Source: an uncultured Methanosarcinales archaeon (lineage in GTDB: Archaea; Nanobdellota; Nanobdellia; Woesearchaeales; DATDXC01). From it: DNA of 44,003 bases. A program made the translations under genes and the position numbers. Of this stretch, positions 8,660 to 31,416 are shown piece by piece; within the stretch, counting starts at the first letter, position 1; each line of letters starts with the position of its first letter. Location: NCBI GenBank assembly GCA_964510025.1, contig CAZDZV010000003.1:124001-168003 (forward strand). The letters are read 5' to 3'. The notes under the pieces were generated by a model. That model searched no databases. It was not told the DNA's origin and saw nothing but the letters and a program-made list of their open reading frames with translations.

Positions 8660-9742
8660 TTGGGGATCGAAATAAATACGACAGCCTTGTACAGAGAGCA
8701 CCTAAGCGCGGGGGCTAAGATAATAGAGTTTGGCGGTTGGAGGATGCCTGTCTATTACACAAATGTTATTGAAGAGCATAATAACACAAGAAACAAAGCA
8801 TCCTTGTTCGATACCTGCCACATGGGCGAGATATCTGTAGAGGGCCAAAATGCTGCTGAATTTCTCCAAAAAATATTGACCAACAATATAGACAGGCTAT
8901 CACCAGGGAAAGCCTTCTATTCACATATGTGCCTGCCTAATGGGGGCATCATAGATGACCTCTTTGTCTATATGTTCTCTGACCGCAGCTATATGCTGGT
9001 GGTTAATGCGGCGAACACAGATAAGGATTTCAGGTGGCTTGTTAGGCAAAAAGAAGGCAGCGTCCGGATATTTGACAGATCAAGGGAAACAGCCAAGATC
9101 GATCTGCAGGGGCCAAGTGCAGCTCAGATATTAAAGGAATTTTCTGATATAAAGAGATTTTGTTTTGCGAAGTCCAAGATTAAAGGTATCCCCTGTCTTG
9201 TATCCAGAACCGGATATACAGGTGAGGACGGCTTTGAAATCTATTTTAATGGAAACGCTGCTGAGATGTGGAACGGGCTTCTTATAGCAGGAGAAAAATA
9301 CGGATTGAAGCCTGCCGGTCTAGGAGCAAGGGACACCTTAAGGATAGAGGCGGGCTACAGCCTATACGGCCATGAGCTAAGCGAGAGCATTAATCCTTTG
9401 GAGGCTGGAGTGGGGTTTGCAGTCAAGTTTGATAAAGATTTTATCGGCAGATCAGCCCTGGAAGAAATAAAAAAACAAGGCGTCAAAAGAAAGATTGTCG
9501 CTTTTAGAATGAATGATAGGGGGATCCCCAGAGCCGGCTATAAGATATTCATGACTGGTGCAGAGGTGGGCTATGTTACATCCGGAACAATGAGCCCAAC
9601 ATTCAGGATAGGCCTGGGCATGGCCTTTGTTGAAAAAGACAAAGCAGATATCGGAAACGAAATACATATAAAGATCAGAGAAAAGCTGTATAGCGCAACA
9701 ATTGAAAATAGACCTATCTATCAATACAAAGGAGGTGGCTAA
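8660..9742 (+). CDS. gcvT: Glycine cleavage system aminomethyltransferase T
   Basis: EFGGWRMPVYY, FDTCHMGE, SRTGYTGEDGFE, GLGARDTLRIEAG; TTG start is uncertain. Confidence 0.95.
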   Translation: MGIEINTTALYREHLSAGAKIIEFGGWRMPVYYTNVIEEHNNTRNKASLFDTCHMGEISVEGQNAAEFLQKILTNNIDRLSPGKAFYSHMCLPNGGIIDDLFVYMFSDRSYMLVVNAANTDKDFRWLVRQKEGSVRIFDRSRETAKIDLQGPSAAQILKEFSDIKRFCFAKSKIKGIPCLVSRTGYTGEDGFEIYFNGNAAEMWNGLLIAGEKYGLKPAGLGARDTLRIEAGYSLYGHELSESINPLEAGVGFAVKFDKDFIGRSALEEIKKQGVKRKIVAFRMNDRGIPRAGYKIFMTGAEVGYVTSGTMSPTFRIGLGMAFVEKDKADIGNEIHIKIREKLYSATIENRPIYQYKGGG

Positions 9743-10117
9743 ATGACAAAGGATCTAAAATATTCCAAAGAACATGAGTGGGTAAAACTTGAAGAGGGAA
9801 CAGCTACTGTAGGCATAACTGATTTTGCTCAGAAACAGCTTACAGACATAGTGTTTGTGGAGCTTCCAGAAAAAGGAAAGCAGATTAAGAAAGGAGAACA
9901 GATGGCTGTTGTCGAGTCTGTGAAATCAGTATCTGATGTTTATGCACCTGTTTCAGGTGAGATTGTTGAAGTGAACAATAATCTGGCAGATAATCCAGAG
10001 CTTATCAATAAAGATCCTTATGGAGATGGCTGGTTTGTAAAGATAAAGGCTAAAGATGCTTCTGAGGCTGATAATCTCATGTCCGCCGAAGAGTATGAAA
10101 AGACCACCAAAAAATAA
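9743..10117 (+). CDS. gcvH: Glycine cleavage system H protein
   Basis: YSKEHEW, VGITDFAQ, VESVKSVSD (lipoyl Lys), NKDPYGDGW. Confidence 0.96.
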   Translation: MTKDLKYSKEHEWVKLEEGTATVGITDFAQKQLTDIVFVELPEKGKQIKKGEQMAVVESVKSVSDVYAPVSGEIVEVNNNLADNPELINKDPYGDGWFVKIKAKDASEADNLMSAEEYEKTTKK

Positions 10118-10130
10118 GAAAGTTTAAAAA
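10117..10130 (+). promoter_or_regulatory. BRE/TATA promoter of the cysteine module
   Basis: AGAAAG-TTTAAAAA, 24 nt before ATG 10155; same TATA octamer and spacing as before the Nop5 ATG (36527-36534, ATG 36559). Confidence 0.6.
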
Positions 10131-10154
10131 GCACTCTCGATTAATAAGCTTAAA

Positions 10155-10181
10155 ATGATGGTCAATTGCATATGTTGCTAG
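10155..10181 (+). CDS. Putative leaderless Cys-rich leader peptide MMVNCICC
   Basis: ATG ATG GTC AAT TGC ATA TGT TGC TAG; 3 of the last 4 sense codons are Cys; directly upstream of tRNA-Cys and the cysteine synthase-CysRS gene. Confidence 0.55.
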   Translation: MMVNCICC

Positions 10182-10204
10182 AGTTCTTTCATTGTGATAG
10201 TTAG

Positions 10205-10277
10205 GGGAGCGTGGCCAAGTGGCTAAGGCGATCGGCTGCAACCCGGTTATTCGTGGGTTCAAGTCCCACCGCTCCCT
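10205..10277 (+). tRNA. tRNA-Cys(GCA)
   Basis: Acceptor GGGAGCG/CGCTCCC, discriminator U, anticodon arm ATCGG-CT GCA AC-CCGGT, T arm GTGGG-TTCAAGT-CCCAC; CCA not encoded. Confidence 0.96.
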
Positions 10278-10286
10278 CTTTTAAAA

Positions 10287-12569
10287 ATGAAAAATATACT
10301 GAAACATATCGGAAACACGCCAATCGTGAAGATCAACCATCTGAACAGTAATAAGAATGTCAATATTTATGCCAAGCTGGAAGGGGTGAATCCAGGCGGC
10401 TCTATCAAAGACAGGATCGCCCTGAAGATGATAGAAGAGGCTGAAGCGCTCGGAAAATTAACTAAGGAAAAGACCATAATAGAGCCAACATCAGGGAACA
10501 CAGGGATTGGGCTATGTCTTGTGGCGGCAGTGAAGGGCTATAATATTGAGATTGTGATGAGCGAAGCTGTGAGCATCGAAAGAAGGAAGATGATGGAAGC
10601 ATTCGGGGCACATATACTGCTAAGTTCAGCTGAGGAAGGAACTGACGGTGCCATAAGGATGGCTCATGAGATGGTAAGGAGAAGCCCGGATAAATATTTC
10701 ATGCCTAACCAATTTGAAAATGAGAATAACTGGAAAGCACATTATGACGGTACAGCCAAGGAAATCGTTGAACAGCTGCCTGATATAGACTATTTTGTGG
10801 CTGGGCTTGGGACATCAGGCACACTGATGGGATGCAGCAGAAGGCTCAAGGAACATAATAGGAAGATAAAGATAATCGCAGCTGAACCAGTGGCAGGCCA
10901 TAAGATACAGGGCCTTAAAAGCCTGAAGGAAGCTGTGGTGCCGGCAATATATGATGATAAATGGATAGATGAGAAGATTATCGTGGAAACATCAGATGCA
11001 TATAATCTTTCCAGAGAACTTATGTCTAAGGAAGGCTTGTTTGTAGGTATGTCCTGCGGAGCTGCCCTTTACGCAGCCTTGAAAGTGGCTTCAAGAATCA
11101 AGAAGGGAAATATACTAGTTATCTTTCCAGATAGGGGAGAAAAGTATTTAAGCACAGCCCTTTTTATGAAAAACAGGATGGGATTAAAATTATTCAATAC
11201 CCTAAGCAGGCAAAAAGAGGATTTTGTCCCGATTGTGAAAGGACATGTTTCCATGTATAGCTGCGGTCCAACCGTATATGACTATGCACATATAGGGAAT
11301 TTCAGAAGCTTTATATTTTCAGACCTGCTTAAGAGATATCTTAGGTACAAGGGCTATAAGGTAACGCAGGTTATGAACATTACAGATGTTGATGACAAGA
11401 CCATACAGGGCAGCCAGAAAGAAGGTAAAAGCCTTAAGGCCTTTACTGACTTTTATACCAAGGAATTTTTTGAGGATTTTTCAACCCTAAACATCGAAAA
11501 ACCAGATATTGTGCCAAGAGCAACAAACACAATAGCTGATATGGTCACCCTTGTAAAGAGACTGATGGAGAAAGGGCTGGCATATAAGAGCAAGGACGGG
11601 AGCATTTATTTTGACATATCAAAATTCAAGGGATATGGAAAGCTCGCTCATGTCAAGATAAAAGAGCTTAAGCCAGGAGCAAGGGTGAAGCAGGATGAAT
11701 ACGATAAGGCATCTGCATCTGATTTTGCGCTGTGGAAAGCATATGATAAGAAAGACGGAGATGTATACTGGGAAACAGAGCTAGGAAAAGGAAGACCAGG
11801 ATGGCACATTGAATGCAGCGTCATGTCAACAAAAAATCTCGGAGAAAATTTTGATATACATACAGGGGGTGTTGACCTGATCTTTCCCCACCATGAGAAT
11901 GAGATTGCTCAAAGCGAAGGAGCTACAGGGAAGCCTTTCGTGAATTACTGGCTTCATTGTGAGCACTTGGTGGTTGAAGGAAAGAAGATGAGCAAGAGCC
12001 TTGGCAATTTCTATACCCTTAGAGACATACTGAAGAAAGGATATGGTGCAAGGGCAATAAGATACGAGCTGATATCCACCCATTACAAGCAACAGCTTAA
12101 TTTTACCTTTAAGGGCCTGGAATCATCTGAGAATGCTGTTGAAAGGCTGCAAGAATTTGCAGATAAACTCAGGTTCATCGATAATGAAAAGGAAAACAAA
12201 GGAGTTTCCCTGCTTATAGGGGAAGCAAAAGAGGCATTCGAGCAGAGCATGGATGATAACCTAAACATTTCTGAGGCGCTGGCAGCCATCTTCGAATTTG
12301 TAAAAAAAGTGAATAAGCTAAATGACAGGATAGGAAGGAAGAATGCAGAAGATATTGTTGGATTCCTAAAGAAAATAAATTCTGTGATCGGTGTTATTGA
12401 ATTTGAAAAGCAAGAACTATCTGAGGATATCCAGAAGAAGATTGATGAGCGGGAGGAAGCCAGGAAGAGGAAGGATTTTGGGAAGGCTGATGAGATAAGA
12501 GATGAGCTGAAAAAGAAAGGTATTGAGCTAAGAGATACGCCTGAGGGAGCCAGATGGAAGAGGGTTTAG
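10287..12569 (+). CDS. cysS: Fused PLP-dependent cysteine synthase (CysM/CysK-like, aa ~1-293) and cysteinyl-tRNA synthetase (aa ~298-760)
   Basis: N-terminal NPGGSIKDRIA, EPTSGNTGIG, GLGTSGT, FPDRGEKYLS; C-terminal CGPTVYDYAHIGN, GRPGWHIECS, FPHHENE, KMSKS; one uninterrupted frame. Confidence 0.93.
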   Translation: MKNILKHIGNTPIVKINHLNSNKNVNIYAKLEGVNPGGSIKDRIALKMIEEAEALGKLTKEKTIIEPTSGNTGIGLCLVAAVKGYNIEIVMSEAVSIERRKMMEAFGAHILLSSAEEGTDGAIRMAHEMVRRSPDKYFMPNQFENENNWKAHYDGTAKEIVEQLPDIDYFVAGLGTSGTLMGCSRRLKEHNRKIKIIAAEPVAGHKIQGLKSLKEAVVPAIYDDKWIDEKIIVETSDAYNLSRELMSKEGLFVGMSCGAALYAALKVASRIKKGNILVIFPDRGEKYLSTALFMKNRMGLKLFNTLSRQKEDFVPIVKGHVSMYSCGPTVYDYAHIGNFRSFIFSDLLKRYLRYKGYKVTQVMNITDVDDKTIQGSQKEGKSLKAFTDFYTKEFFEDFSTLNIEKPDIVPRATNTIADMVTLVKRLMEKGLAYKSKDGSIYFDISKFKGYGKLAHVKIKELKPGARVKQDEYDKASASDFALWKAYDKKDGDVYWETELGKGRPGWHIECSVMSTKNLGENFDIHTGGVDLIFPHHENEIAQSEGATGKPFVNYWLHCEHLVVEGKKMSKSLGNFYTLRDILKKGYGARAIRYELISTHYKQQLNFTFKGLESSENAVERLQEFADKLRFIDNEKENKGVSLLIGEAKEAFEQSMDDNLNISEALAAIFEFVKKVNKLNDRIGRKNAEDIVGFLKKINSVIGVIEFEKQELSEDIQKKIDEREEARKRKDFGKADEIRDELKKKGIELRDTPEGARWKRV

Positions 12570-13252
12570 TCTAGGGACATTCTCAAGTTTTGCAGCCCTT
12601 GCTCAAGCAGTCTATCTACATCATCAGCTGCTATCAGGTCTGCCTCTTTATCTTTGATTAAGCATTTGAGATAGGCTATATCTGGCTCTAGGAGTGATGT
12701 AACAAGCTGCCGGGCTTCTTCAAGATGTGCGTCTCTTAAAAGTGAATAAGCCTGGCGGTCAAGGAATTGTGACCTTAGATAAAATCTAGCAAATAAGAGA
12801 TCCTCTCTTTGTCCTGCAACAAGATCTCCTAAATCCGCTCCCAAAACTGCTACTAAAGCCTGATTTCCATCAATCCCCTGTAAAGCGGTTGCTACATCTG
12901 CTCGGAACACCTCAAACGCATCTCTAACGTCATCCGGAATATGAGACTGGTATGCCTGCATCAGCAGCTCGCTTAATCCATCATCAGATTCAACCTCTGG
13001 TCTCACTGATGGCACATACTTGACTTGATGTTCATTTCCTTGACAAGAGAATAGCTGAAACCCATAAGGAAGATTCTCAGCCCATGCTACCTGATTAGAA
13101 GGCTGTCTCCAAAAATCTGTGTCTCTATCAGAACTGAGAGTTGCGGTTGCTAACGGCGAGCCCAGCCCTATACCATAGAGACTAAGGCCAATGCTGCCCT
13201 CAAATGGATTGTCAGGTATATCTGTGGTGTAGTATACGACGCGCTGACCCAT
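12566..13252 (-). CDS. Hypothetical protein
   Basis: Long ORF; start moved to ATG 13252 (MGQRVVYY) to avoid overlapping the upstream gene; no family recognised. Confidence 0.65.
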   Translation of the reverse strand: MGQRVVYYTTDIPDNPFEGSIGLSLYGIGLGSPLATATLSSDRDTDFWRQPSNQVAWAENLPYGFQLFSCQGNEHQVKYVPSVRPEVESDDGLSELLMQAYQSHIPDDVRDAFEVFRADVATALQGIDGNQALVAVLGADLGDLVAGQREDLLFARFYLRSQFLDRQAYSLLRDAHLEEARQLVTSLLEPDIAYLKCLIKDKEADLIAADDVDRLLEQGLQNLRMSLD

Positions 13253-13310
13253 CCCAGTAATATGCTGGAAAGCTTTTTGTATCTTTTCTCGCGGAAACAA
13301 AATAAAACAC

Positions 13311-14795
13311 CTACCTTTGCAGCTGCAGGTGGAGCTGCCTGACCTGTTCTGTAAACGGTGCTGTGATGTCAAAATATCCTATTGTCTTGCCAACAACTTC
13401 AGGTCTCGTGGGGGGTTCTATTATCCTGGCTGCGTACAGTTCATAAAGCACATCATGCTGTTGAAGAGCGAATACATGGTCTATACCACCACCGCTGAAT
13501 ACAGGAGCATCCACAACAACAAAACAGTTTCCAGTGCCAAGCCGCTTATAGTCATCACCTATAATGCCGGCGCTTTTTAAGAGCTCAATCATCGTGCCTC
13601 CTGTGTCCCATATATCATCTCTTAAGACGACGATTTTTGAGCCTAATCTGGCGCTGATGTCAATTCCATGGCCTTCCATAGGCGTTATTGCTTCAATATG
13701 CTGCGCTTTTCCAGCCCTGTTTTTCTGGTATACAATCCAGGGGACCTCATAATCAGTTGGTATGCTTCCTCCCAATGAAGGATGATCCTTGAGTGCTTCG
13801 GTAAGATCCTGTGCAAAGAACCTTGTCTCTTCTTTTGAACCTTCATCAGGGCCAACAACAACCAGTTTTTCGACCAGCTCTGATGCGCCTCCAAACTGAT
13901 TTGCAAGCTTCTCGACCAACCTGTCAATATATTTCTGCCGCATATCCTGCTGTTCATATACCTCAACAATGCTGATTCCATTTTGCTCATAGAAGCTTAC
14001 CTGTCTATCGGAATGCTTTCTCCATGTGATTACCTGCGTAATACCAGCTAAGGACATCTGTTCAGCCCACCATCTTGATAGATTGCCTTCGCCGTAGGTT
14101 TTGTCCCTATCTGATCTGCCTTCTAAATATGGGATAGCCACACTAATGGAACGGGCTCTGTACTGATGCAGTGTTCTAGCAGTGATCATCAGCTCCTGCA
14201 TCTGGTCATTGAATGATCTTGGTTTTACAATCCTTTCAAGATGGCTCTGCACTGAGTGATGCGCTTCCCTATCACTGTCGAATTCATTCAGGCTCATTTC
14301 TGGGTGGGATGCAACAAAGCATTCCAGAGCCTCCCAAACATCGCGAAAGTAGGACCTATTTATCTGGCCCCGTTCATTGCCATTACCATAGACAGCACCT
14401 TTTCGAAAATACCCCTGCAGTCTTTTTCCCATACTCTTCCTGGCTGATTCTTCCTCTGTTATCTCTCCACTAAGCCTCGCCCTTATCAATTCTAAGGCAG
14501 CATAGTGAGCTGGTCTTTGCGAGAACGGATCTACAAGCCTTTGCGCCAGGACTACATGCGTATCATTGAGATGGCCTTCTGCACTTTCTTCTGTTATCAA
14601 AGGAAGATCATCATTGAAGCCCATTCTTTGCGCTTCTGATTCGGTAAATAGTTTGAAATTAATGGGCTCATCAGAATAGGTGAATGGAACACCTGCAATC
14701 CTAGCTAGCTGAATTCCGCTAGCCGCTGCCAAATTTGCCCTTATATGGTCTGCCAGATCTGTAGCAGACCTGCAGCCTTCTATTGCTAAATACAT
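13311..14795 (-). CDS. Divergent ribose-phosphate pyrophosphokinase (Prs)-like protein with large insertion
   Basis: NDQMQELMITARTL..RARSISVAIPYLEGRSDR, AGITQVITWRKHS, VVVGPDEG, KNR, DDIWDTGGTM, PVFSG correspond in order to Prs motifs. Confidence 0.75.
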   Translation of the reverse strand: MYLAIEGCRSATDLADHIRANLAAASGIQLARIAGVPFTYSDEPINFKLFTESEAQRMGFNDDLPLITEESAEGHLNDTHVVLAQRLVDPFSQRPAHYAALELIRARLSGEITEEESARKSMGKRLQGYFRKGAVYGNGNERGQINRSYFRDVWEALECFVASHPEMSLNEFDSDREAHHSVQSHLERIVKPRSFNDQMQELMITARTLHQYRARSISVAIPYLEGRSDRDKTYGEGNLSRWWAEQMSLAGITQVITWRKHSDRQVSFYEQNGISIVEVYEQQDMRQKYIDRLVEKLANQFGGASELVEKLVVVGPDEGSKEETRFFAQDLTEALKDHPSLGGSIPTDYEVPWIVYQKNRAGKAQHIEAITPMEGHGIDISARLGSKIVVLRDDIWDTGGTMIELLKSAGIIGDDYKRLGTGNCFVVVDAPVFSGGGIDHVFALQQHDVLYELYAARIIEPPTRPEVVGKTIGYFDITAPFTEQVRQLHLQLQR

Positions 14796-14890
14796 GATAC
14801 CCCCTTATTTACGATATAAATGCATAGTCATTTATAAATTTTACCATTGTAGAATGGTGAAAATTAGAAGCATAGTGTAAATTTCTATTG

Positions 14891-17323
14891 CTAAATCCTA
14901 ATATCCACTTCGAAGTCGATATCTGACTTTTTGTCTAGTCTTTCATAGGCTATATTTTCAGCTTTTGTAGCAGCGATTATATCCTCCTTGGCAAGCCCAA
15001 AATCCTGCTCAGATATTCTTCCCCTGACGACCAGCTCCTTTATAGGGCTCTTCAAGCTCATGTTTTTTTCTGATTTTGCCTGTCTTGATTTCTGGACTGC
15101 ATATATTGCTAGACTGCCTGTCTCATCTGCTTTTTTATCGCCCAGCACTGGACCAGGCCATTTTGAGATATGGATACTTTTTGATTTTTCCAGTGCTTTG
15201 AAGTAAAGCTGATATATCTCTTCAGTAATATGGGGCATGATAGGGGCCATCATCTTAAGTATAGCTAACAGGGCTGTATAAAGGCTGTATTGGCCACTTA
15301 GCCTGGCTTCCCTGCCTCTTTTGTCTGGATTATACAGCCTGTCTTTGGCTATTTCAAGATAATTATCGCAAAAATCATGCCAGAAAAAATTTTCAACATC
15401 TGCTTTTGTCTTGTTATATTCATATTTGGCAAAAGATTCTGTAGATGTCCTGATTATCTTGCTCAATTTAGATAATATCCATCTGTCGACTACCTCAAGC
15501 TTCCCTGGCTTCTGCAATTTGTAGTCTTCCAGATGCATAATAGCGAATTTAGATGCATTCCACAGCTTTGTGATAAATTTTTGGGCTGTTACAAGATCTT
15601 TTTCCTGGAACGGAAGGTCTTCTCCGAGTTTTGAACCGGCGGCCCAAAACCTTAAGGAATCTGCACAGTATTTCTCAATCATTTCTTGAGGCTCTACAAC
15701 ATTTCCCTTTGATTTCGACATCTTTCTGCCGTGCGGATCCTGGGCATGACCTGAAATTGCGACATCCTTCCATGGATTGATGTTGTTATGCAGCCTTGAC
15801 TTGACAACTGTATTAAAAAGCCAGAAGGTTATTATGTCATGCGCCTGAGGCCTTAGTGACATCGGGTATACCTTATTCTGAAGGCTTTTATCCACCAAGC
15901 CGGCAGCTATCTGGGGTGTCAATGATGATGTAGCCCATGTGTCTAGCACGTCCTTTTCAGGCAGAAAATCTTTCGCACCGCATTTTGGGCATTTGTCCAC
16001 AGGCGGCTTATCTTTTAAAGGATCCACAGGCAACTCCTTTTCACTGGCTAAGATGACTTCATCACAGTTTTTGCAATACCAAACCGGAAACGGAATTCCA
16101 AAATACCGTTGACGGGAAATCATCCAATCCCACTGCAGACCATCAACCCAGTGTTCGTACCTTGATTCCATAAATTTTGGATACCAGTTAAGCTCCTTTC
16201 CCCATCTTATCATATCATCCTTAAGGTCAAGGTATTTAATGAACCACTGTTTTGCCTTCAGATACTCTATCTCTGTTCCGCATCTTTCATGGACATTAAC
16301 AGCATGCTTGATTGGTTCCTGAGAGATGAGGAGCCTCGCGTCTTTGAGATCCTCGATGATCATCTTTCTTGCAGTCTGTATAGACATACCCTCATATTTT
16401 TTTGCCAGGCTTGTCATCTTTCCGTCTTGAGTTATGGCCAGCTTAATCGGCAGGTCATGAGCTTTCTGCCATTCCATGTCTGTCTGGTCACCAAATGTGC
16501 AGCACATAACTATTCCGGTACCTTTCTCAGGATCAGCCCGGGTATCGGGCATTATAGGGACCTTAAAATCAAACAGGGGCACAATAGCCATTTTTCCCTT
16601 GTATTTGCGGTATCTCTTATCATCGGGGTGGAAGAATATGGCTACACAGGCCGGAAGCAGCTCAGGCCTTGTTGTAGCGATGATCAGGTCCTGCAGATCG
16701 CCGTTTTCATCCTCTACCTTGAATACTATATCATTAAAGAAAGACTCAAGCTCCCTATCCTGGCATTCAACCTGGGAGATGCCTGTTTCGCATGCAGGAC
16801 ACCACATTGTCGGAGCATCTTTGCGATATTCCCTACCTTTCTTATACAACTCAATGAAAGAACGCTGGGAGATTTTTTGGGAATGCTTGTCTATCGTGTC
16901 ATAAAATATCTCGAAATCGCAGCTAAGTCCCAGCCTTTTCATGTCTGCAACATATTGCGGCTTAAGCTCCTTGTTGACGGTATCCAGACAGATCCTGGCA
17001 AATTTCTCTCTGCCCACCTCTTTTGCCTTTATGCCTTTCATCCTTTCAATAAGGCGTTCGGTAGGGACACCATTGTTGTCTGTGCCAAAAGGATAAAATA
17101 TGTTCTTGCCCAGCATCCTTTGAAACCTCACAAGGAAATCCTGCTGTGAATAGCTGAAGGAATGCCCCAGGTGCATCTTTCCTGAGATTGTCGGGGGCGG
17201 AGTGTCTACCGAATATACCTCTGACTTAGAGCTTGGGTCGAAGCTGAAAATTTTTTCCTTTTCCCAAAACTTCTGCCATTTGGGCTCTGATTCCTTCGGA
17301 TTGTAGCGTTTGGGCAATTTCAT
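14891..17323 (-). CDS. valS: Valyl-tRNA synthetase (archaeal type)
   Basis: DTPPPTISGKMHLGH, ATTRPELLPAC, GTGIVMCCTFGD, DWMISRQRYFG, KMSKSKGN; start reset to MKLPKRY at 17323, ~22 nt after TTTAAATA. Confidence 0.96.
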   Translation of the reverse strand: MKLPKRYNPKESEPKWQKFWEKEKIFSFDPSSKSEVYSVDTPPPTISGKMHLGHSFSYSQQDFLVRFQRMLGKNIFYPFGTDNNGVPTERLIERMKGIKAKEVGREKFARICLDTVNKELKPQYVADMKRLGLSCDFEIFYDTIDKHSQKISQRSFIELYKKGREYRKDAPTMWCPACETGISQVECQDRELESFFNDIVFKVEDENGDLQDLIIATTRPELLPACVAIFFHPDDKRYRKYKGKMAIVPLFDFKVPIMPDTRADPEKGTGIVMCCTFGDQTDMEWQKAHDLPIKLAITQDGKMTSLAKKYEGMSIQTARKMIIEDLKDARLLISQEPIKHAVNVHERCGTEIEYLKAKQWFIKYLDLKDDMIRWGKELNWYPKFMESRYEHWVDGLQWDWMISRQRYFGIPFPVWYCKNCDEVILASEKELPVDPLKDKPPVDKCPKCGAKDFLPEKDVLDTWATSSLTPQIAAGLVDKSLQNKVYPMSLRPQAHDIITFWLFNTVVKSRLHNNINPWKDVAISGHAQDPHGRKMSKSKGNVVEPQEMIEKYCADSLRFWAAGSKLGEDLPFQEKDLVTAQKFITKLWNASKFAIMHLEDYKLQKPGKLEVVDRWILSKLSKIIRTSTESFAKYEYNKTKADVENFFWHDFCDNYLEIAKDRLYNPDKRGREARLSGQYSLYTALLAILKMMAPIMPHITEEIYQLYFKALEKSKSIHISKWPGPVLGDKKADETGSLAIYAVQKSRQAKSEKNMSLKSPIKELVVRGRISEQDFGLAKEDIIAATKAENIAYERLDKKSDIDFEVDIRI

Positions 17324-17418
17324 ATGTATGTGGGGTACTGAAACATTATTTAAATTTTTGGGAAAAGCCGCAGATAGAAAGCTTTTTAAAGAAAATACTG
17401 TTTCCAAAGTCTTATGAT

Positions 17419-17540
17419 GGGGCTATGGGGTAGCTTGGAATCATCCTTTCCGCTTTGGGTTTTCTAACAAAAAAGCGGACGACCCCGGTTCAAAACAGCC
17501 CATAATGATCGTTGGGGCTATGAAAGTCCGGGTAGCCCCA
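17419..17540 (+). tRNA. tRNA-Pro(TGG) with two introns (17460-17473 at 37/38; 17495-17526 at 59/60)
   Basis: Acceptor GGGGCTA/TAGCCCC+A, anticodon stem TCCGC/GCGGA, T stem CCCGG/CCGGG; both inserts form bulge-helix-bulge motifs (TTTG/CAAA and TTCA/TGAA); mature length 76 nt. Confidence 0.9.
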
Positions 17541-17553
17541 TATCTAATACAAA

Positions 17554-17829
17554 ATGGCCAAACAAATCAATATCGGTTCTACTCGAAGATTCGGAGCTAG
17601 ATACGGCAGAAAGGTAAGAAAAAGGTTCGGCATTATCGAATCTGAACAGCGAAAGCTGCATAAATGCCCCTACTGCAGTGCTGTCAAGGCGAAAAGAAAA
17701 GCGGTAGGCATCTGGGAATGCAGGAAATGCGGCAGCAAATTTTCCGGCAAAGCCTATTCAATCAGGAAAAAAATTGCCTTCAAAGCTGAAGAAGAGCAGG
17801 AAGAGGCTCCTCAAGAGGAGGAACAATAA
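17554..17829 (+). CDS. rpl37ae: 50S ribosomal protein L37Ae (eL43)
   Basis: RFGARYGRKVR, CPYC...GIWECRKC; acidic C-terminal tail. Confidence 0.95.
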   Translation: MAKQINIGSTRRFGARYGRKVRKRFGIIESEQRKLHKCPYCSAVKAKRKAVGIWECRKCGSKFSGKAYSIRKKIAFKAEEEQEEAPQEEEQ

Positions 17830-17830
17830 A

Positions 17831-17968
17831 ATGGTAGAATACAAATGTTTTGAATGCAATAAGAAGGTCTCTGCAGATTATCTGCGTAAAAGGGTAAGGT
17901 GCCCTTACTGCGGAAGCAAGATTCTTTTCAAGTCGAGATCAATAGTTACTAAAGTAAGAGCAAGGTGA
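17831..17968 (+). CDS. rpoP: DNA-directed RNA polymerase subunit P (Rpo12)
   Basis: MVEYKCFECNK...VRCPYCGSKILFKSR; conserved position after rpl37ae. Confidence 0.92.
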   Translation: MVEYKCFECNKKVSADYLRKRVRCPYCGSKILFKSRSIVTKVRAR

Positions 17969-18306
17969 TCAGTTTGGCAGAGGTTTCAAAGGAAACAGAG
18001 CAGAAAATAAATCAGCTGCAAATGTATGAGCAAAGCATGCAAAGCCTGCTCATGCAGAAGCAGCAGTTCCAGTCAAAACTTGTGGAGATAGATTCTGCTT
18101 TGGCAGAGCTTGACAAAGCGAAAGATGCCTATAAAATAGTTGCCAACATCATGGTTTCCAGCGACAAAGATGAACTGAAAAAAGAACTAAGCTCCAAGAA
18201 GGAGTCCTCTGAGCTCAGAATAAAGACCATAGAAAAGCAAGAACAGAGGATAAAAGAGAAAGCAGAGAAGCTTCAGTCTGAAGTGATGAAAAGCATGGAA
18301 AAATGA
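17965..18306 (+). CDS. pfdB: Prefoldin subunit beta
   Basis: Coiled coil, AYKIVANIMV hairpin, coiled coil; conserved neighbourhood. Confidence 0.88.
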   Translation: MISLAEVSKETEQKINQLQMYEQSMQSLLMQKQQFQSKLVEIDSALAELDKAKDAYKIVANIMVSSDKDELKKELSSKKESSELRIKTIEKQEQRIKEKAEKLQSEVMKSMEK

Positions 18307-18548
18307 ATGTACAACTGACTGATGTAATTTCAGTTCTTAAGGATTTGGATGAGGATGCTACTGTACCCAAGAACATAAAAACCAAGATCAAGGAGATAAT
18401 GAATCTGCTGGCTTCTGAAGATGCAGAGATTTCTATCAAGGTCAATAAAGCCCTGAACCTGCTGGATGATATCGCTGACGATATCAACATCAAGTCATAC
18501 ACCAGGACGCAGATTTGGAATGCTGTAAGCCTGCTTGAGAAGGTCTAG
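18303..18548 (+). CDS. UPF0147 family protein
   Basis: EDATVPKNIK...LDDIADDINIKSYTRTQIWNAVSLLE. Confidence 0.85.
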   Translation: MNVQLTDVISVLKDLDEDATVPKNIKTKIKEIMNLLASEDAEISIKVNKALNLLDDIADDINIKSYTRTQIWNAVSLLEKV

Positions 18549-18811
18549 ACGATTCCGTCTTCCAGAAGCTCTCTTTCCTTTCTAAGGTAATCATCCAGGG
18601 TGATTTTATCTGTTATATAGTTGATCTGAAGCTGCTTCAGTGGCGTATCAACATACTCCAGGTTTATGGTGATCATCCCAAGATTTTCCGGCTTATCCTC
18701 CAGTTTTTCCACATAGCTTTTGCCCCAGTTCATGGTTATTGTTCCGATTACCAGAGCAAAAACCACAAGGATTATTGTGGAGGTAAGGGGAGATATAGCT
18801 TTTTTGTTCAT
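18545..18811 (-). CDS. Small archaeal pilin-like protein (class III signal peptide) with SHOCT-like C-terminus
   Basis: MNKKA/ISPL followed by a hydrophobic helix; C-terminal PLKQLQINYITDKITLDDYLRK. Confidence 0.65.
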   Translation of the reverse strand: MNKKAISPLTSTIILVVFALVIGTITMNWGKSYVEKLEDKPENLGMITINLEYVDTPLKQLQINYITDKITLDDYLRKERELLEDGIV

Positions 18812-19107
18812 TTTTTTGAAATTTCTTTCTGGATAAGCAACATGTAGATAAATATGGTTATTATTACAAACTCAAACACTGAAGTGAAAATCCTTGGAGT
18901 ATTTGTGACGCCCAGGCTGTTCAGTATCGTAAGTATCTCCTCAACTATATAGATACAGACAGCAGCGAACAGTATCCTCCATGGCTTAAGCATCAGCTTT
19001 TTATGTCTGGTGCTGAGCAACCTGATAAAGAAATGCATTATGATAATGACAAGGATAAGATTATAGTAAGGTGCAACCAGACCTAAGCAGATATCCAGAT
19101 ATGCCAT
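18808..19107 (-). CDS. Small 3-TM membrane protein (paralog 2)
   Basis: Three hydrophobic segments; shares LKPWRIL...EEIL..L with the adjacent ORF. Confidence 0.7.
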   Translation of the reverse strand: MAYLDICLGLVAPYYNLILVIIIMHFFIRLLSTRHKKLMLKPWRILFAAVCIYIVEEILTILNSLGVTNTPRIFTSVFEFVIITIFIYMLLIQKEISKK

Positions 19108-19109
19108 TT

Positions 19110-19406
19110 TTACCTTTTTCTAACTATGTTTATTTGAAATATTATTGCTGTCAGCAGCAAAGCCAGCATAGCAGTGGGAATGATATGAGTCAAGTACGGG
19201 CTTTCAAAAATCCCAAATGCCCTCAGGGCTCCCAATATTTCCTGCACTGAAAACAAAACCAAAGCCAATATCAGATATTTCCATGGCCTAAGCTCCTTTT
19301 TCCTATGGCTTACCCGGAATAGGCTTATAGCTATATATCCTGCTATTATTGCCAGAACAACATTCGCTATCTTGATAATCCCTTCCAGCTGCTGCAAAAA
19401 TGTCAC
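19110..19406 (-). CDS. Small 3-TM membrane protein (paralog 1)
   Basis: Three hydrophobic segments; LRPWKYL...QEILGAL; GTG start. Confidence 0.7.
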   Translation of the reverse strand: MTFLQQLEGIIKIANVVLAIIAGYIAISLFRVSHRKKELRPWKYLILALVLFSVQEILGALRAFGIFESPYLTHIIPTAMLALLLTAIIFQINIVRKR

Positions 19407-19493
19407 CTTTAACAGTACTGAAATCTCTAATATAAAAATCTTTTTATTTTAGGAAAAATCTTTAATAATAAGCTATATTACATAAACAAAAAA

Positions 19494-20456
19494 ATGCCAA
19501 CTAATGTTACTGCTGAATATACAGCAGCTGAGCAGGAATACCAAAGGGCTTCCGGTACTGCAGAAAAAATCACTGCTCTCGAAAAGATGCACCGGGAAGT
19601 ACCTAAGCATAAGGGGACTGAAAAGCTTAGACAGGAGATCAAGACCAAGCTGGCTAAATACCGGCAGAAGCAGGAAAAAGAAAAAACCAAAGCGAAGGGC
19701 AGAGCGCTGACAATCCCAAAAGAAGGGGCAGCAACTGTATGCCTCGTCGGAATGCCCAATTCTGGGAAATCATCAATCCTTAAGAAACTTAGCGGCGCAA
19801 AGGCAAAGATTGCTGATTATGAATATACCACCAAAATGCCTATAGTCGGAATAATGGACTACCAGGGCCTAAAGCTGCAAATGATCGAGATACCCGCTAT
19901 TTTTGAAGGCTATAATGAAAGCGAGCGAGGCCCCCAATTTCTCTCTATTGTCAGGCAGGCTGATTTGGTGCTGATAATAGCCGACAGAGCAAACCTGGAC
20001 ACCCTGTTTAGCGAATTTAAGAAAGCAAAGATAGTCTTCAACGAGAGGCAACAATATACCGAGACCCTCAAATCCTTTATCGTCATCAACAAGAAGGACA
20101 TAATAGACATAGATAAGGTCCATCAGGGATTATGCAGGTATTATAATCTTGACTTATTCCGGATGTCTGTTCTCGACAACCAAGATATAAATGAACTAAA
20201 GAAGGAGATATGGGACCATCTGGATCTTATCAAGATACGGACCAAGCAGCCCGGGAAGAAAGTCAGCAAAGGTGAGCCTCTGTGCCTAAAAAAAGGGGCA
20301 ACTATCAAAGACATGGCAAAGCATCTTCACAAGGATTTCATCAAAAGGTACAGGTTTGCCAGAATATGGGGCAAATCTGCAAAATTTGATGGTCAGCAGG
20401 TTGGCTTAAACCACCAGCTGATGGATGAAGATATCGTAGAAATACATCTTAGATAG
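19494..20456 (+). CDS. OBG/DRG-family GTPase with C-terminal TGS domain
   Basis: PKHKGTEKL, GMPNSGKSS (G1), YEYTT (G2), NKKD (G4), ARIWGKSAKFDGQQVGLNHQLMDEDIVEI. Confidence 0.9.
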   Translation: MPTNVTAEYTAAEQEYQRASGTAEKITALEKMHREVPKHKGTEKLRQEIKTKLAKYRQKQEKEKTKAKGRALTIPKEGAATVCLVGMPNSGKSSILKKLSGAKAKIADYEYTTKMPIVGIMDYQGLKLQMIEIPAIFEGYNESERGPQFLSIVRQADLVLIIADRANLDTLFSEFKKAKIVFNERQQYTETLKSFIVINKKDIIDIDKVHQGLCRYYNLDLFRMSVLDNQDINELKKEIWDHLDLIKIRTKQPGKKVSKGEPLCLKKGATIKDMAKHLHKDFIKRYRFARIWGKSAKFDGQQVGLNHQLMDEDIVEIHLR

Positions 20457-26545: not shown

Positions 26546-29500
26546 AAAAAAGCATTTGATAATATTTATTACAATATTAGCTATTTTAATCATATCTGGC
26601 TCCAGGCTTGGATTATGCGATGGGGGTACCGAACCTGATTCCAGTGCCGAAGACACAGCGGCTAGTCCAGATACCAGCGAGGGCACAAGTTCAGACGATA
26701 CCAATGATAATAGCGGCGAGGGTTCAGAGGACAATTCAGAAGCTGATGGGGGGGCAAGTGAAGAAGACACCCCACCAGAAGATGAAGAGCCTGAAGAAGA
26801 GGACAATGATGGAGACAGTGAAGTGCCATCAGATGAAGACACCCCACCAGAAGATGAAGAGCCTGAAGAAGAGGACAATGATGGAGACANNNNNNNNNNN
26901 NNNNNNNNNNNNNNNNNNNNNNNNNNNNNNNNNNNNNNNNNNNNNNNNNNNNNNNNNNNNNNNNNNNNNNNNNNNNNNNNNNNNNNNNNCAGATGAAGAC
27001 ACCCCACCAGAAGATGAAGAGCCTGAAGAAGAGGACAATGATGGCAACGATCAAAAATCAGACAGTAATTCCGGCAGAAGAAACAGCGGAGACTCCGGCT
27101 ACCATCCACAGCCTAACCCATGCGCCGGCGTGAACTGTTATGACAATGATCCTTGCACCAATGATTACTGTGAAAACGGACGATGCTATAACACAGCTAT
27201 CCCTGGATGCAACACTACCATACAACACCCAAAAAATCCAGCTCCAAGCTTTGAACAGCTATCTCCAGAAAGCATGAAATATGTGTTATTAAACGAATTC
27301 CCAGGCGAAAGCTTTGGCATAGAAACAAGCAAAAAGGAATACGGTAAGAATGAAGATGTATGGACAACCATCCACGCACCAAGCGATTCAGATGTGGAAT
27401 TGTCTTTTAACTATGACGGCTACAGGCAGTATATCAAAATACCAAAAGAAAAGGGATATCCTCTTGATTTTCTTCTACCCATCCCCAATAATATCAAACA
27501 GGGCATATATGTTATAAGGGCAGCAGTATATTATGCAGGGCTAATCATGAAGACCGATACCTATTTTGAGATTAATGAAGATACCATAAGGATATTAGGG
27601 CCAGAAAGGGAGGAACCGGTTTCAGCGGAGATCGGTAGCCAAGAAGAATACGAGCCAGCAATCTTGCCTCCGGAAAAAAACACCGAGGATATAACAGATA
27701 ACAGATCCATTAAGGTCGCTCTGGACTATGGAACAGCTAGCGAATATGATGAGGATAATGATGGTATCGAGTCAAAGGACGGCATCATCGACCTTACAGC
27801 TAAGAGCACCAAATTTAGCTGGGAAGCTAATGAGGATAAACTATGCAGCCAGTGGGCAGTTGAAAGCCTTGATACAACCTCTGTCTCGAAGGTATGCTAT
27901 GGGAGCCAACAATGCTGCGATTTTATCAGCCTGAAGCCCTCAAAACAGAGATGGAATGATGACTTATATCTAAACTACGGATCTTTGGGTGCAACTAAAA
28001 ATAATCTTGTCAGTGTAAGGGTTATCCATGTAGATTACGATGTTGGACTGGAAAATCCATACTCCAACATAGTCTACTCTGATGTAGCCAAAATATCTGC
28101 TAATTTTGAAGAAGTTGAGGATAAGAAGTCCAATCTTAAGAATCAGCCTATAGTGGTAGATGAAGAAGTCAAGTGGTCTAAAGAGGTGGAGGTTGAGAAC
28201 GCAGCTGAAAAGAAAATCGATATTGACCTTCTTGTTGACATTCCGGCAACTGCTAGAGGGATAAGGGTTATTGAGGGAGAGTCAGGAGAGATTGTTGCCA
28301 ACTATCTATCCGGAAACGACCTGGTAATAAGGGACAGTCTGGATAGCAATGAGAATAAGGAATATGTCATTGAGTTTGAAACAGCGCCACCAAGAAAGGA
28401 GGAAAAACAGCCTTTAGAGTCTGGGACAGAGTGGAAAAAGGAGGTTGTGATAACAAGCGATTCTGAATATGAAGGGGATTATGAGTATAAGAATGTTTTA
28501 AGCTATTCAGACATCAAAGAAAGTGAAAAAGAAAACATCCGGCTGTACTGGGATACAGATTCCGGCAAGGTCGATGTAACAGATGCTGCCGAATTTAATG
28601 TTTCCTATTATGATACAAACAATAACGGGCTGATGGATAGGATAAGCTGGATTACGCCGCACCTTTCTACACAGGAATTTGAGATAGTAATTACTCTGAC
28701 TGCAACAGCATCACCATTCGAGGAAGACATCTCAATAATACTCACTGAACCTAGAGGGGGCATCCATATGAACGAGAATCCACTGGGATTCAGGTTTTCA
28801 GTAACCTATAATGACAGCTATACAAATGTGGTGTGCAACCTTAGCGTGGATAGTGCTGTTATCAAGCGAAACATCCCAACAGTCACAAGCCAAAGCAGTG
28901 TCTGGACAAATCTTTCTGAAGGGCTTCATAGCTGGTACGTGGAATGCGGAGGAGATGATTCGGTATCGAGCACAACTGAAGAGTTCATTGTAGACATCAC
29001 CCCTCCGGCTATTGAGCTTCTTAATGATGATCCAGACCTTAGCCTAGTTGATTCAATAGACCTTAAGTTCAGGGCTGCAGATAACATAGCAGATGACCTA
29101 GACTGCAGTCTTCTTATAAACGGGGAACTAAACAAGACAGATATCGCAGTATCCAGCGGTATCGAGGCTACGGTTAATGTAAACGCCCTTGAAAACGGGA
29201 CCTATAACTGGGCAGTGCGATGCCAGGATGAAGCAGGCAACCTTAATACCAGTCTAACCGGAAATTTCTACATCGATACCAAGAAGAATTTTAGCATAAG
29301 GCTGGACAAGGAAGATTACTCACTAGGTGAAGGCGGGGTCTACATAATAACTGCCCCTCATCAGGCAGAAGTCACAATGGTAATCACGACCCCTAAGGAG
29401 ACAACAATCACCAGAAGCTATTCTGGAGATTTTCCTGTTATCGACCAAATAGATTTCTTGGAATACCCAGGCACGTATGAGCTTAAAGGATTCCTAAACT

Positions 29501-31416
29501 ACGGCGGCGCAATAAAGACAGATGCAGTATACCTAAATGCAAAGAACACACTAAGTGCGGAGATAAAGGTAGATAAGCACAAGGTAAAAAGCGGGACCCC
29601 CATCCAATTTAAGGGAACTGCGTCAGGAGGAATAGGTGATCTAAGCTATGAATGGGACCTTGGGGACGGATCAACATCTACAGAAAAAACGTTTTCTCAC
29701 AGCTATTCTGAAATCGATACATACAGAGCAGACCTATACGTAACTGACAGCAAAGGTAACAGCATACGTACCAGCAGAAATATCTATGTAGAGCAGGATT
29801 ATGAGGTAAAAGTATATGTAAGAGATGCAGAAACAGGTGAAGCAGTTGAAAACGCAAAGGTCTATCTTGAGGGCGAGGAACAAAAGACAGATAGCTCTGG
29901 TCTGGTCAGCTATACCGTGTTCAAGGATGAATACAGCCTACTGGTAAGACATGATGACTATCTTTCTTTTTTCAACACCACCCTGATTACCGGAGCTACT
30001 GAACTTATGGTAGAGCTATCAAAACTTACCGGAAATCTTACAGCAGAGGATTTGAATTTAACAATACCTGAAGAGCCTGAAGAAAAGGAATCGGAAATAA
30101 CGGAAATAGCAGAAGAACCTGTTGAAGAGCCTGAGAGAGAATTTGCATCCAGCCTAGATTTGAACATAGACCAACTCATTGCGCAAGCTGAGCAGGCAGT
30201 CTACGCATACAATGATCTAGATAGCCAGGGAAAGGAGTTCTTCACTATCTTAGATATGCAGAGAAAGCTGGAGAAGGCAGAAAAAAGTCTACGCAGGTAC
30301 AAGGCTGACCTATTCAACCTAGAATCCAAGGCAAGGGCAGATAAGGAAGAAGAGATAGCTGAGAGGAAGAAGGAAATCAATGAGAATGTCAACGATATTT
30401 ATGAGAACACCGTTGTAAGCGTCGATGTCAGAAGCCATGATGAATATATCAGCTATCCAAATGAAGAAATCATAAGACAGCTTTCAATAGACTATCTTGA
30501 TGCCAAGAACATCAGTATGTCCGAGAAGCAAATAGAACAGTTCATCAAGAACAATATGAAAATACAGAAACAGCTTAGCATGGAGACAGTTGTGAAAACA
30601 GGCGAGATACAGTTTCTGTCTGGAAAAAAGCAGGATGTTACGCTGGTTGCACATCTTACGGGCAATGACACTTCTGAACATCCTATAGTTGTTTCCATAC
30701 CCAAAAGTATAGCAGAGGATATTGGTCAGATGGAGATTATAAACGACCATGAGATAGTGAACTCTGATCCCATGATCGAGTTCAGACTGGAGGAAACAGA
30801 TAAAATTGTATATTATATCAATGCAGCAATGGATACAGAGAAGACAAAGGAAATACAAGCTGTACTGATGTCATCCCCTTCTGAAGTCAAGGTGAGAAAC
30901 GCCGGCCTCAGCATCATAGGATACGCTATATTCTCGAGGATTACTGGAATAGAGAATCCGCTGATAATTTTCGAAATACTGGCAATCGTTATATTGCTTG
31001 CTGTCTATCTGGAGTATCAGTTTGACCTGAAGGATAAGATAAAGGGGAAACTGCTCTGCGCAAACAAGGAGCTTAGGCAGGTTACAGACCTGATGAACGA
31101 TATCAAGGTATGCCTCGAGAACAACGAGATCGATAATGCGTCTGTGGTATATTCAGATCTGATGAAAGAATACAGGAAGCTTTCACCTAAGGCAAAGGCC
31201 TCTATACATAAAAAGATCATCGACATATATAGCCAGATTGCATTCTATAAGCTGAATGAAAAGATCAATATGGCCTTTGCTCTGGTAAAGGAAAAGGAGC
31301 TGGGCAAGGCAAAAGCCAACTACTCAGAGATAAAGGAGATATACAAAGGGCTTCCGGAAGATTACAAATTGCAGGTAACAGCGAGATGCAGACTTCTTTT
31401 TGAGAAACTGGCCTGA
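26535..31416 (+). CDS. Giant (~1600 aa) membrane-anchored surface protein; reading frame broken only by a 100-N scaffold gap
   Basis: Signal peptide at 26535; acidic 24-aa repeats on both sides of the gap; Cys-rich CYDNDPCTNDYC module; Ig-like domains; PKD domain (YEWDLGDG); coiled coil; TM (LIIFEILAIVILLAVYL); cytoplasmic helical repeats. Confidence 0.85.
26763..27044 (+). repeat. 72-bp coding tandem repeat (EDTPPEDEEPEEEDNDGDSEVPSD) spanning the assembly gap 26890-26989
   Basis: Units start at 26763, 26835 and 26995; copy number unresolved. Confidence 0.9.

Follow-up and report, generated by a model that had tools for sequence, protein, structure and literature searches.

A cysteine synthase fused to cysteinyl-tRNA synthetase downstream of a tRNA-Cys gene in a Woesearchaeales-like archaeon

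What is to be made of a gene that joins an enzyme producing an amino acid to the enzyme that loads this amino acid onto tRNA? The question is raised by a 44,003-nt stretch of archaeal DNA (the window: positions 124,001–168,003 of contig CAZDZV010000003.1, assembly GCA_964510025.1), in which a cysteine synthase is fused in frame to a cysteinyl-tRNA synthetase (CysRS). The host is a Woesearchaeales-like archaeon with a genome of 1.70 Mb, 97.7% complete. We find that the fusion gene is real, conserved and rare. Our preferred account, which we hold to be probable, is that the protein consists of two tethered, independent enzymes, leading from O-phosphoserine (OPS) and sulfide to cysteine and on to Cys-tRNA, and that it goes back to a native operon of leader, tRNA-Cys, cysM and cysS from which a stop codon was lost.

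The fusion gene and its upstream partners

A single stop-free open reading frame (ORF) of 760 aa spans window positions 10287–12569 on the forward strand, with the cysteine synthase N-terminal and CysRS C-terminal. The in-frame fusion proposed in the initial annotation is upheld, since all four Pfam domains are found (PALP at residues 5–282, tRNA-synt_1e at 313–614, DALR_2 at 650–704 and CysS_C at 709–757) and the NCBIfam models cysKM (370.6 bits, cut-off 344.15) and cysS (TIGR00435, 530.2, cut-off 340) are both passed. The narrower equivalogs score below their cut-offs (cysM TIGR01138, 334.9 versus 394.2; cysK TIGR01139, 324.7 versus 350.95); the cysteine-synthase half is assigned by the joint subfamily model alone, to neither the CysM nor the CysK equivalog. 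The motifs named in that annotation were all located: the lysine K41, TSGNT (68–72) and GTSGT (175) of the pyridoxal phosphate (PLP) domain, which also has the NQF glutamine Q142 and K211; HIGN (335) and KMSKS (567) of the CysRS half; and an internal methionine, residue 298, encoded by the ATG at 11178. Residues C326, C510, H535 and E539 of the zinc and cysteine site each lie within their motifs, and are the predicted zinc ligands, by comparison with E. coli CysRS. The class I and cysteine-site motifs are all shared with canonical CysRS (E. coli CysS, 1u0b/1li5), which lacks the 294-residue N-terminal cysteine synthase that the fusion carries. An AlphaFold model of the monomer, made from a 100-row alignment, has a mean predicted local distance difference test score (pLDDT) of 89.4 and a predicted template modeling score (pTM) of 0.63, with low confidence (pLDDT <50) only at the loop 204–215 and at the junction residues 296–298. 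Its best Foldseek match is the E. coli CysRS-tRNA structure 1u0b (E 5e-45, 42% identity), and cysteine synthases come next. Both halves look complete and are likely to be active.

The linker is short as claimed, about four residues, and the junction resembles two abutting genes, as it would if an assembly or sequencing artefact had deleted a stop codon. We regard that explanation as refuted for practical purposes, because contigs of three runs (X1, X2 and X3) cross positions 11160–11185 with no stop and no differing letter, and because diverged homologues are fused alike. The run evidence consists of assembled contigs, as distinct from raw reads, all from one microbial-mat study, and X1 is possibly the source sample. 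The homologues were taken from the best 120 full-length matches to the archaeal query, so that their counts are lower bounds. Among these matches were 17 fusions at 58–76% identity, one intermediate protein (P0019), 99 fusions at 46–50% identity and two standalone CysRS. At least 17 homologues in the first group share the in-frame junction; five of the 17 listed are labelled Woesearchaeota, Nanoarchaeota or Nanobdellota and the remaining 12 are unlabelled.

Rarity is seen in the order as a whole: three of 401 genomes carry the fusion (the host, G000, and genomes G045 and G094), and 83 of the 401 have a cysteine-synthase match. Three unpublished genomes (G135, G210 and G212) are included in the order-wide, locus, leader and genome counts and in the larger trees below. 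A scan of genome contigs covered eight of 64 parts; a back-translated junction pattern gave no matches in metagenome contigs, and an alignment scan, which covered one of 64 parts, gave almost exclusively ordinary cysS loci. Two loci first taken for fusions by coverage (L110 and L114) are unfused pairs of cysK-like and cysS genes. A Solibacteraceae record (L136:3645-6503) holds a 952-aa open frame with CysRS in its C-terminal half; the N-terminal part is no cysteine synthase.

More belongs to the unit than the fusion ORF: a tRNA-Cys gene and a poly-Cys leader ORF lie just upstream (Table 1). The leader stop and the tRNA gene are 23 nt apart, and from the position of the TATA-like box the leader would be near-leaderless. 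This tRNA-Cys(GCA) is the only convincing tRNA-Cys found in the host genome. At position 37 most archaea have G and most bacteria A, according to the available part of PMC8762117. ARAGORN calls a second tRNA-Cys on contig C2, which we would rather read as tRNA-Gly(GCC) with an intron; at G000:C2:12697-12902 (L148) the tRNA-Cys and tRNA-Ser calls look like mis-called intron-bearing tRNAs.

Table 1. Positions of the parts of the unit and of the second Cys-tRNA route (window coordinates unless a contig is given)
Feature	Coordinates	Strand	Basis
TATA-box-like element, predicted promoter, 24 nt before leader ATG	10123..10130	+	Sequence; function inferred
Leader mini-ORF MMVNCICC, 8 codons, 3 Cys within the last 4; predicted Cys-tRNA sensor	10155..10181	+	ORF comparison
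Pyrimidine-rich TTCT..CAT-type motif right after leader stop	10184..10194	+	Comparison of leaders
tRNA-Cys(GCA), intronless, U73, A37, ends 9 nt before fusion ATG	10205..10277	+	ARAGORN; Rfam RF00005, 62.3 bits
CysM-type PLP cysteine synthase domain, residues 1–294 (predicted)	10287..11168	+	Pfam, NCBIfam, alignment
Junction, residues 295–298; its last residue, Met298, is the kept start of the former cysS	11169..11180	+	Alignment, contigs, model
Class I CysRS, residues 298–760, with DALR and anticodon-binding domains (predicted)	11178..12569	+	Pfam, NCBIfam, Foldseek
SepRS-SepCysS run	G000:C21 about 13100-19600 (L163:5132-11621)	−	Profile scores

Leaders were scored as mini-ORFs with at least three Cys in six codons, no more than 450 nt upstream. 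Such a mini-ORF stands before 21 of the 30 closest cysM loci, the host's among them; of the 1084 long ORFs in the host genome, 25 have one. At least two Cys codons fall in the final three codons of 20 of the 21 leaders, and a TATA-like box lies 18–36 nt upstream in 19. The TTCT..CAT-type motif follows the stop in 15 of the 21, versus 32 of 1095 ordinary long-ORF stops of the host, a comparison in which the pattern was chosen after inspecting the leaders and the related genomes are not independent. The fused genome G045 has a leader, and G212 carries the same leader peptide as the host; the fused genome G094 shows no leader by the Cys-count criterion, a point against our account. In seven Woesearchaeales loci the tRNA-Cys gene is upstream of a standalone cysS (L013, L016, L017, L021, L022, L025 and L030), three of them with a poly-Cys leader, and Cys-rich leader ORFs precede cysS or cysteine synthase in L063, L083, L170 and L210.

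The leader mini-ORF likely senses cysteine shortage. Of the features that define a leader attenuator, the conserved ORF of cognate codons is present and the alternative terminator and antiterminator hairpins are absent: positions 10150–10204 fold at only −6.4 kcal/mol, with no strong or terminator hairpin between leader and tRNA. The mycobacterial poly-Cys attenuators (bioRxiv 10.1101/834739) are, as far as the available text goes, likewise short, likely leaderless ORFs ending in Cys codons before cysteine genes, and there such leaders have been shown; ours differs in its archaeal host, in having no evident sequestering or terminator hairpin and in the tRNA gene that stands between predicted leader and gene. 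In our proposal leader, tRNA-Cys and fusion would be co-transcribed, and ribosomes stalling at the leader Cys codons would raise expression when charged tRNA-Cys is scarce. The stalled ribosome might perhaps shield the U/C-rich motif from the terminator nuclease aCPSF1/FttA, which has a role in U-tract termination; a gene of this family is present in the host genome.

Relatives, origin and the bacterial look-alikes

The simplest reading of the origin is that the fusion arose by stop-codon loss in a native operon, and we consider it likely because cysM and cysS still lie side by side as separate genes in 13 of the 30 closest cysM loci. These 13 are among the 16 loci with cysS within 1.5 kb; a tRNA-Cys gene is upstream in nine of the 30, including a locus of G004, from the same family as the host. 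One genome (G317) is nearly fused, with cysM and cysS in frame and separated by one stop inside a Shine-Dalgarno (SD)-like motif. In the fused genome G094 the SD-like motif is translated as the linker. Duplex energies computed with a generic anti-SD, the host's own not having been found, are −9.8 (G317) and −9.2 (G094); the motif is eroded in the host and in G045 (−0.8 and −1.1). Labels on the nearest standalone relatives of both halves, where given, are mostly Woesearchaeota or Nanoarchaeota.

The junction methionine, the old cysS start, is kept in 19 of 19 archaeal-type fusions versus none of the 99 bacterial fusions listed. In the same 19 a D/N-K/R pair precedes it, while residues 291 and 294–295 vary. 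Such conservation is what one would expect if translation could still begin at Met298, so that a separate CysRS would be made along with the full fusion, itself a tolerated operon read-through. The strong SD-like motif at the G094 junction and the internal start codon of Mycoplasma penetrans MetRS (PMC13215547, available part) point the same way. Against two products stand the erosion of the motif in the host and in G045, and the small base for the comparison, as junction DNA was on hand for three archaeal fusions and the energies rest on the generic anti-SD; the conservation around Met298 could also be structural. We judge two products unlikely and prefer a single fused one.

Whether the archaeal fusions share one origin was addressed by trees of each half (114 and 107 rows, a random subsample of 231 and 255; quick IQ-TREE runs with Shimodaira–Hasegawa-like approximate likelihood ratio (SH-aLRT) support only). 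These are unrooted and were sampled around the archaeal query, and so they do not tell which way any transfer went. The archaeal fusions fall on one side of a branch with support of 93–97 in the CysM tree and 85 in the CysRS tree. Two results count against a single origin: the fusions interleave with standalones in smaller CysRS trees, where a single origin is nevertheless not rejected (p 0.225), and one standalone nests inside them in one tree. A single origin of the archaeal fusions is likely, with moderate support. P0019, which has the CysM half and junction of the archaeal fusion clade and a CysRS half from another clade, is a probable chimera.

The initial annotation had suspected that similar fusions exist in anaerobic bacteria, and this was correct: at least 99 such proteins match at 46–50% identity, and of the 99 listed, 10 carry labels, nearly all Desulfobacterota or deltaproteobacterial. 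They share domain order, length and K211 (99 of 99 listed) with the host protein. Their CysRS half is degenerate, however, with a HIGH-like motif in one of 99 and KMSKS in none among the matches listed, and a second, higher-scoring canonical standalone cysS was present in both bacterial genomes tested. HIGH and KMSKS are found in 18 of 18 archaeal-type fusions, as are K41, Q142 and K211. The host fusion is not of the degenerate type: its ATP motifs are intact and no second CysRS, nor a second cysteine synthase, was found in the host genome by tblastn.

These bacterial proteins, identical in architecture, would be the natural donors had the host acquired its fusion ready-made from Desulfobacterota-like anaerobes, as that annotation went on to suggest. 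We find this very unlikely. Besides the degenerate synthetase half and the canonical second gene, the bacterial fusions are without the junction Met and form one clade in both trees (support 100 and 99), and a forced clade of archaeal and bacterial fusions is rejected for both halves by the approximately unbiased (AU) test (p 0.004 and 0.015 for CysRS, 0.003 for CysM). The bacterial clade groups instead with nine unfused Woesearchaeales genes (support 99 in both trees), eight of them from the same cysM-cysS operons, and the grouping persists in smaller trees, under a mixture model and without G135, G210 and G212. The partners of the bacterial fusions (P0020-P0120; L082, L106) in both trees are unfused Woesearchaeales tRNA-Cys-cysM-cysS operons, and the canonical cysS copies of the bacterial genomes fall elsewhere.

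Substrate, a second Cys-tRNA route and mode of action

The absence of cysE from the window had suggested OPS as substrate in place of O-acetylserine (OAS). No cysE scores over the cut-off in the whole genome either, and MetX and MetA were not found there; together with the SerA- and SerC-like genes present and the basic K211, this makes OPS the likelier substrate, and we lean towards it. A phosphoserine pool is also implied by SepRS in the same genome (see below). A cluster at G000:C2:43500-49200 (L147) holds a gene that we take from its motifs to be phosphoglycerate-mutase-like, an ACT-domain protein, DUF1015, a class V aminotransferase and a short SerA-like gene; in relatives DUF1015 is often on the same contig near a SerA match. 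A serB-like HAD gene of the host is below cut-off. K211 aligns with the active-site-loop Arg of the M. tuberculosis OPS sulfhydrylase CysM (3dwg), R220. The lysine is kept without exception in the archaeal-type fusions (18 of 18), the bacterial fusions listed (99 of 99) and the standalone relatives (120 of 120).

The survey of pathway genes took in two bacterial genomes and, of the 82 other genomes that have a cysteine-synthase match, 68 (the 14 weakest excluded). Full-length cysE was found in three of the 32 genomes with the close CysM clade; where the synthase is more distant, it was found in 18 of 36. Fused to the CysM clade or directly before it is a 135-aa protein of ParB fold that looks like a shortened free serine kinase (SerK) (P0160, P0179, L052:1101-1508); the best solved-structure matches of this short gene are free serine kinases, and the gene order in G317 is serK-like, cysM, cysS. 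A ParB-family match in the host is not SerK-like, and no SerK-like gene was found in its genome. The known OPS sulfhydrylases (M. tuberculosis CysM, 3dwg; T. kodakarensis CysK with SerK, PMC5120207, available part) share the basic loop residue, and the lack of serine acetyltransferase in the host genome and the SerK-like genes linked to the clade are further likenesses; they differ in that no CysO/ThiS carrier or SerK-like gene was found in the host, and in the fusion to CysRS.

Several observations weigh against OPS. In some enzymes a basic residue at the K211 site goes with selection of OPS (PMC3805590, PMC5120207, as far as their available text goes), but R210 of E. coli CysM is linked to thiosulfate binding (PMC9547175), and C. 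jejuni CysM accepts only OAS (PMC9855970). The residue looks necessary, is not sufficient for OPS use and is not diagnostic, and its loop is poorly modelled. Among the 32 close-clade genomes a strong SerA match is found in only 11, DUF1015 in 13 and a clear SerK-like gene in two. In G045 and G094 strong SerA matches and DUF1015 are both missing and no SerK-like gene is clear, and our account offers no source of phosphoserine for these two. A lack of cysE, of a strong SerA match and of a SerK-like gene, as seen in many of the close-clade genomes, would also fit a PLP domain with another substrate or direction, such as OAS or serine from a host, or breakdown of cysteine to sulfide, and the H2S-producing Fusobacterium enzyme Fn1220 ranks among the top structure matches. 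We consider this alternative rather unlikely: the poly-Cys leader predicts induction at cysteine shortage, which fits synthesis over breakdown, SerK-like genes are linked to the CysM clade and the host has phosphoserine genes.

The host appears to have a second route to Cys-tRNA. SepRS and SepCysS, both over cut-off, lie on contig C21 within a single row of genes that also includes SufC/SufB-like genes, an alpha/beta hydrolase and a PF03313 gene. Contamination is an unlikely source of this contig, which occurs in the same runs as the fusion locus, resembles it in depth and composition and has an ordinary tetranucleotide profile. SepRS was found in none of the 70 other genomes surveyed, both other fusion carriers included, and is therefore special to the host lineage and does not explain the fusion. 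A second route also means that the CysRS half is not necessarily essential, a point against our account.

Since SepRS is in the same genome and the tRNA-Cys gene adjoins the fusion, one might suppose tRNA-dependent synthesis in cis, in which Sep-tRNA(Cys), the product of SepRS, would stay on the CysRS domain while the CysM domain turns it into Cys-tRNA. We consider this extremely unlikely, given the lack of SepRS in the other 70 genomes, an unchanged TSGNT loop and a SepCysS already available for the job; the TSGNT loop binds a free carboxylate. The SepRS-SepCysS transsulfursome (PMC5424206, PMC8762117) likewise couples phosphoserine-based cysteine synthesis with Cys-tRNA formation. As the available parts of these papers describe it, sulfur is added there on the tRNA, whereas the fusion would make free cysteine first, and the enzymes are not homologous.

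Our preferred account, then, has the CysM domain making free cysteine, presumably from OPS and sulfide, and the loosely tethered CysRS domain charging it onto tRNA-Cys. The protein would dimerise through the CysM domain, as cysteine synthases of this family do. The benefit would be fixed co-expression and proximity, with no tunnel.

The initial annotation had gone further and suggested that new cysteine is channelled directly into aminoacylation. True channelling or allosteric coupling, where cysteine made by CysM would go straight to the CysRS site and bypass the bulk pool, as a direct-route counterpart of the transsulfursome, finds some encouragement in the very short junction of near-constant length in 19 of 19 archaeal-type fusions, in the fusion of the same two enzymes at least twice independently, in the reactivity of cysteine, and in a desulfidase-family gene (PF03313) that the host also carries. 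We nevertheless hold it to be unsupported and quite improbable. The genes are mostly separate in relatives, with three fused of 83 genomes that have a cysteine-synthase match; the model leaves the domain arrangement loose, its pTM being 0.63 despite a mean pLDDT of 89, and the junction scores below 50; and in the best-studied analogue, the M. penetrans MetRS, neither activity depends on the other and the two sites would adjoin only after a rearrangement (PMC13215547, available part).

The neighbouring window genes are archaeal (NurA, prefoldin, Nop). Directly upstream of the unit and on the same strand are gcvT and gcvH (8660–10117), with gcvP absent from the window ORFs scanned. A 494-aa protein at 13311–14795 on the reverse strand has a weak, below-cut-off match to ribose-phosphate diphosphokinase, and a 1602-aa protein with PKD and Ig-like domains at 26608–31416 on the forward strand is probably a surface protein.

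Known counterparts and meaning

We found no description of a cysteine synthase-CysRS fusion in the literature searched, supplements, which may list such fusions, not included; nor do two SepRS surveys mention one in their available text. The Desulfobacterales cysS* (PMC5389517) is a different, truncated protein. The closest precedent is the M. penetrans NTD-AGAT-MetRS, of which the available part of PMC13215547 reports that a fused PLP aminotransferase and the synthetase work independently and that the authors call the arrangement unique. There too, in an organism with a small genome, a class I synthetase carries at its N-terminus a PLP enzyme that makes its amino acid; the PLP part is dimeric, as predicted for the CysM domain here, and coupling is speculated. 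The amino acid, the enzyme fold and the domain of life differ; activities were shown there and are predicted here, and the cysteine unit includes a tRNA gene and a predicted sensing leader. The Desulfobacterota-type fusion differs from the host's in its lost ATP motifs, second canonical cysS, missing junction Met and separate clade (support 99–100).

A more ambitious reading joins these threads: a self-regulating Woesearchaeales cassette of a hairpin-free, ribosome-read poly-Cys leader acting via the terminator nuclease, a tRNA-Cys gene and a kinetically coupled enzyme that makes Cys-tRNA out of phosphoserine and sulfide, whose operon lineage moved into Desulfobacterota and there gave rise to the fusion with a dead CysRS. 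We put it forward as improbable. If it were true, the host protein would be the working counterpart of the Desulfobacterota pseudo-synthetase and the direct-route twin of the transsulfursome.

The gene is the second case, after the one studied precedent we found, of a synthetase fused to a maker of its own amino acid, now for cysteine and in archaea. The unfused, nearly fused and fused states among its relatives make channelling versus co-expression testable with natural pairs. It also provides an intact reference for a widespread bacterial fusion that is labelled cysteine--tRNA ligase despite a degenerate CysRS half. A genome with both Cys-tRNA routes is of interest for the replacement of SepRS by CysRS in archaea, which the available part of PMC5424206 treats as unsolved, and the conserved poly-Cys leader suggests that archaea sense amino acids by way of the translating ribosome.

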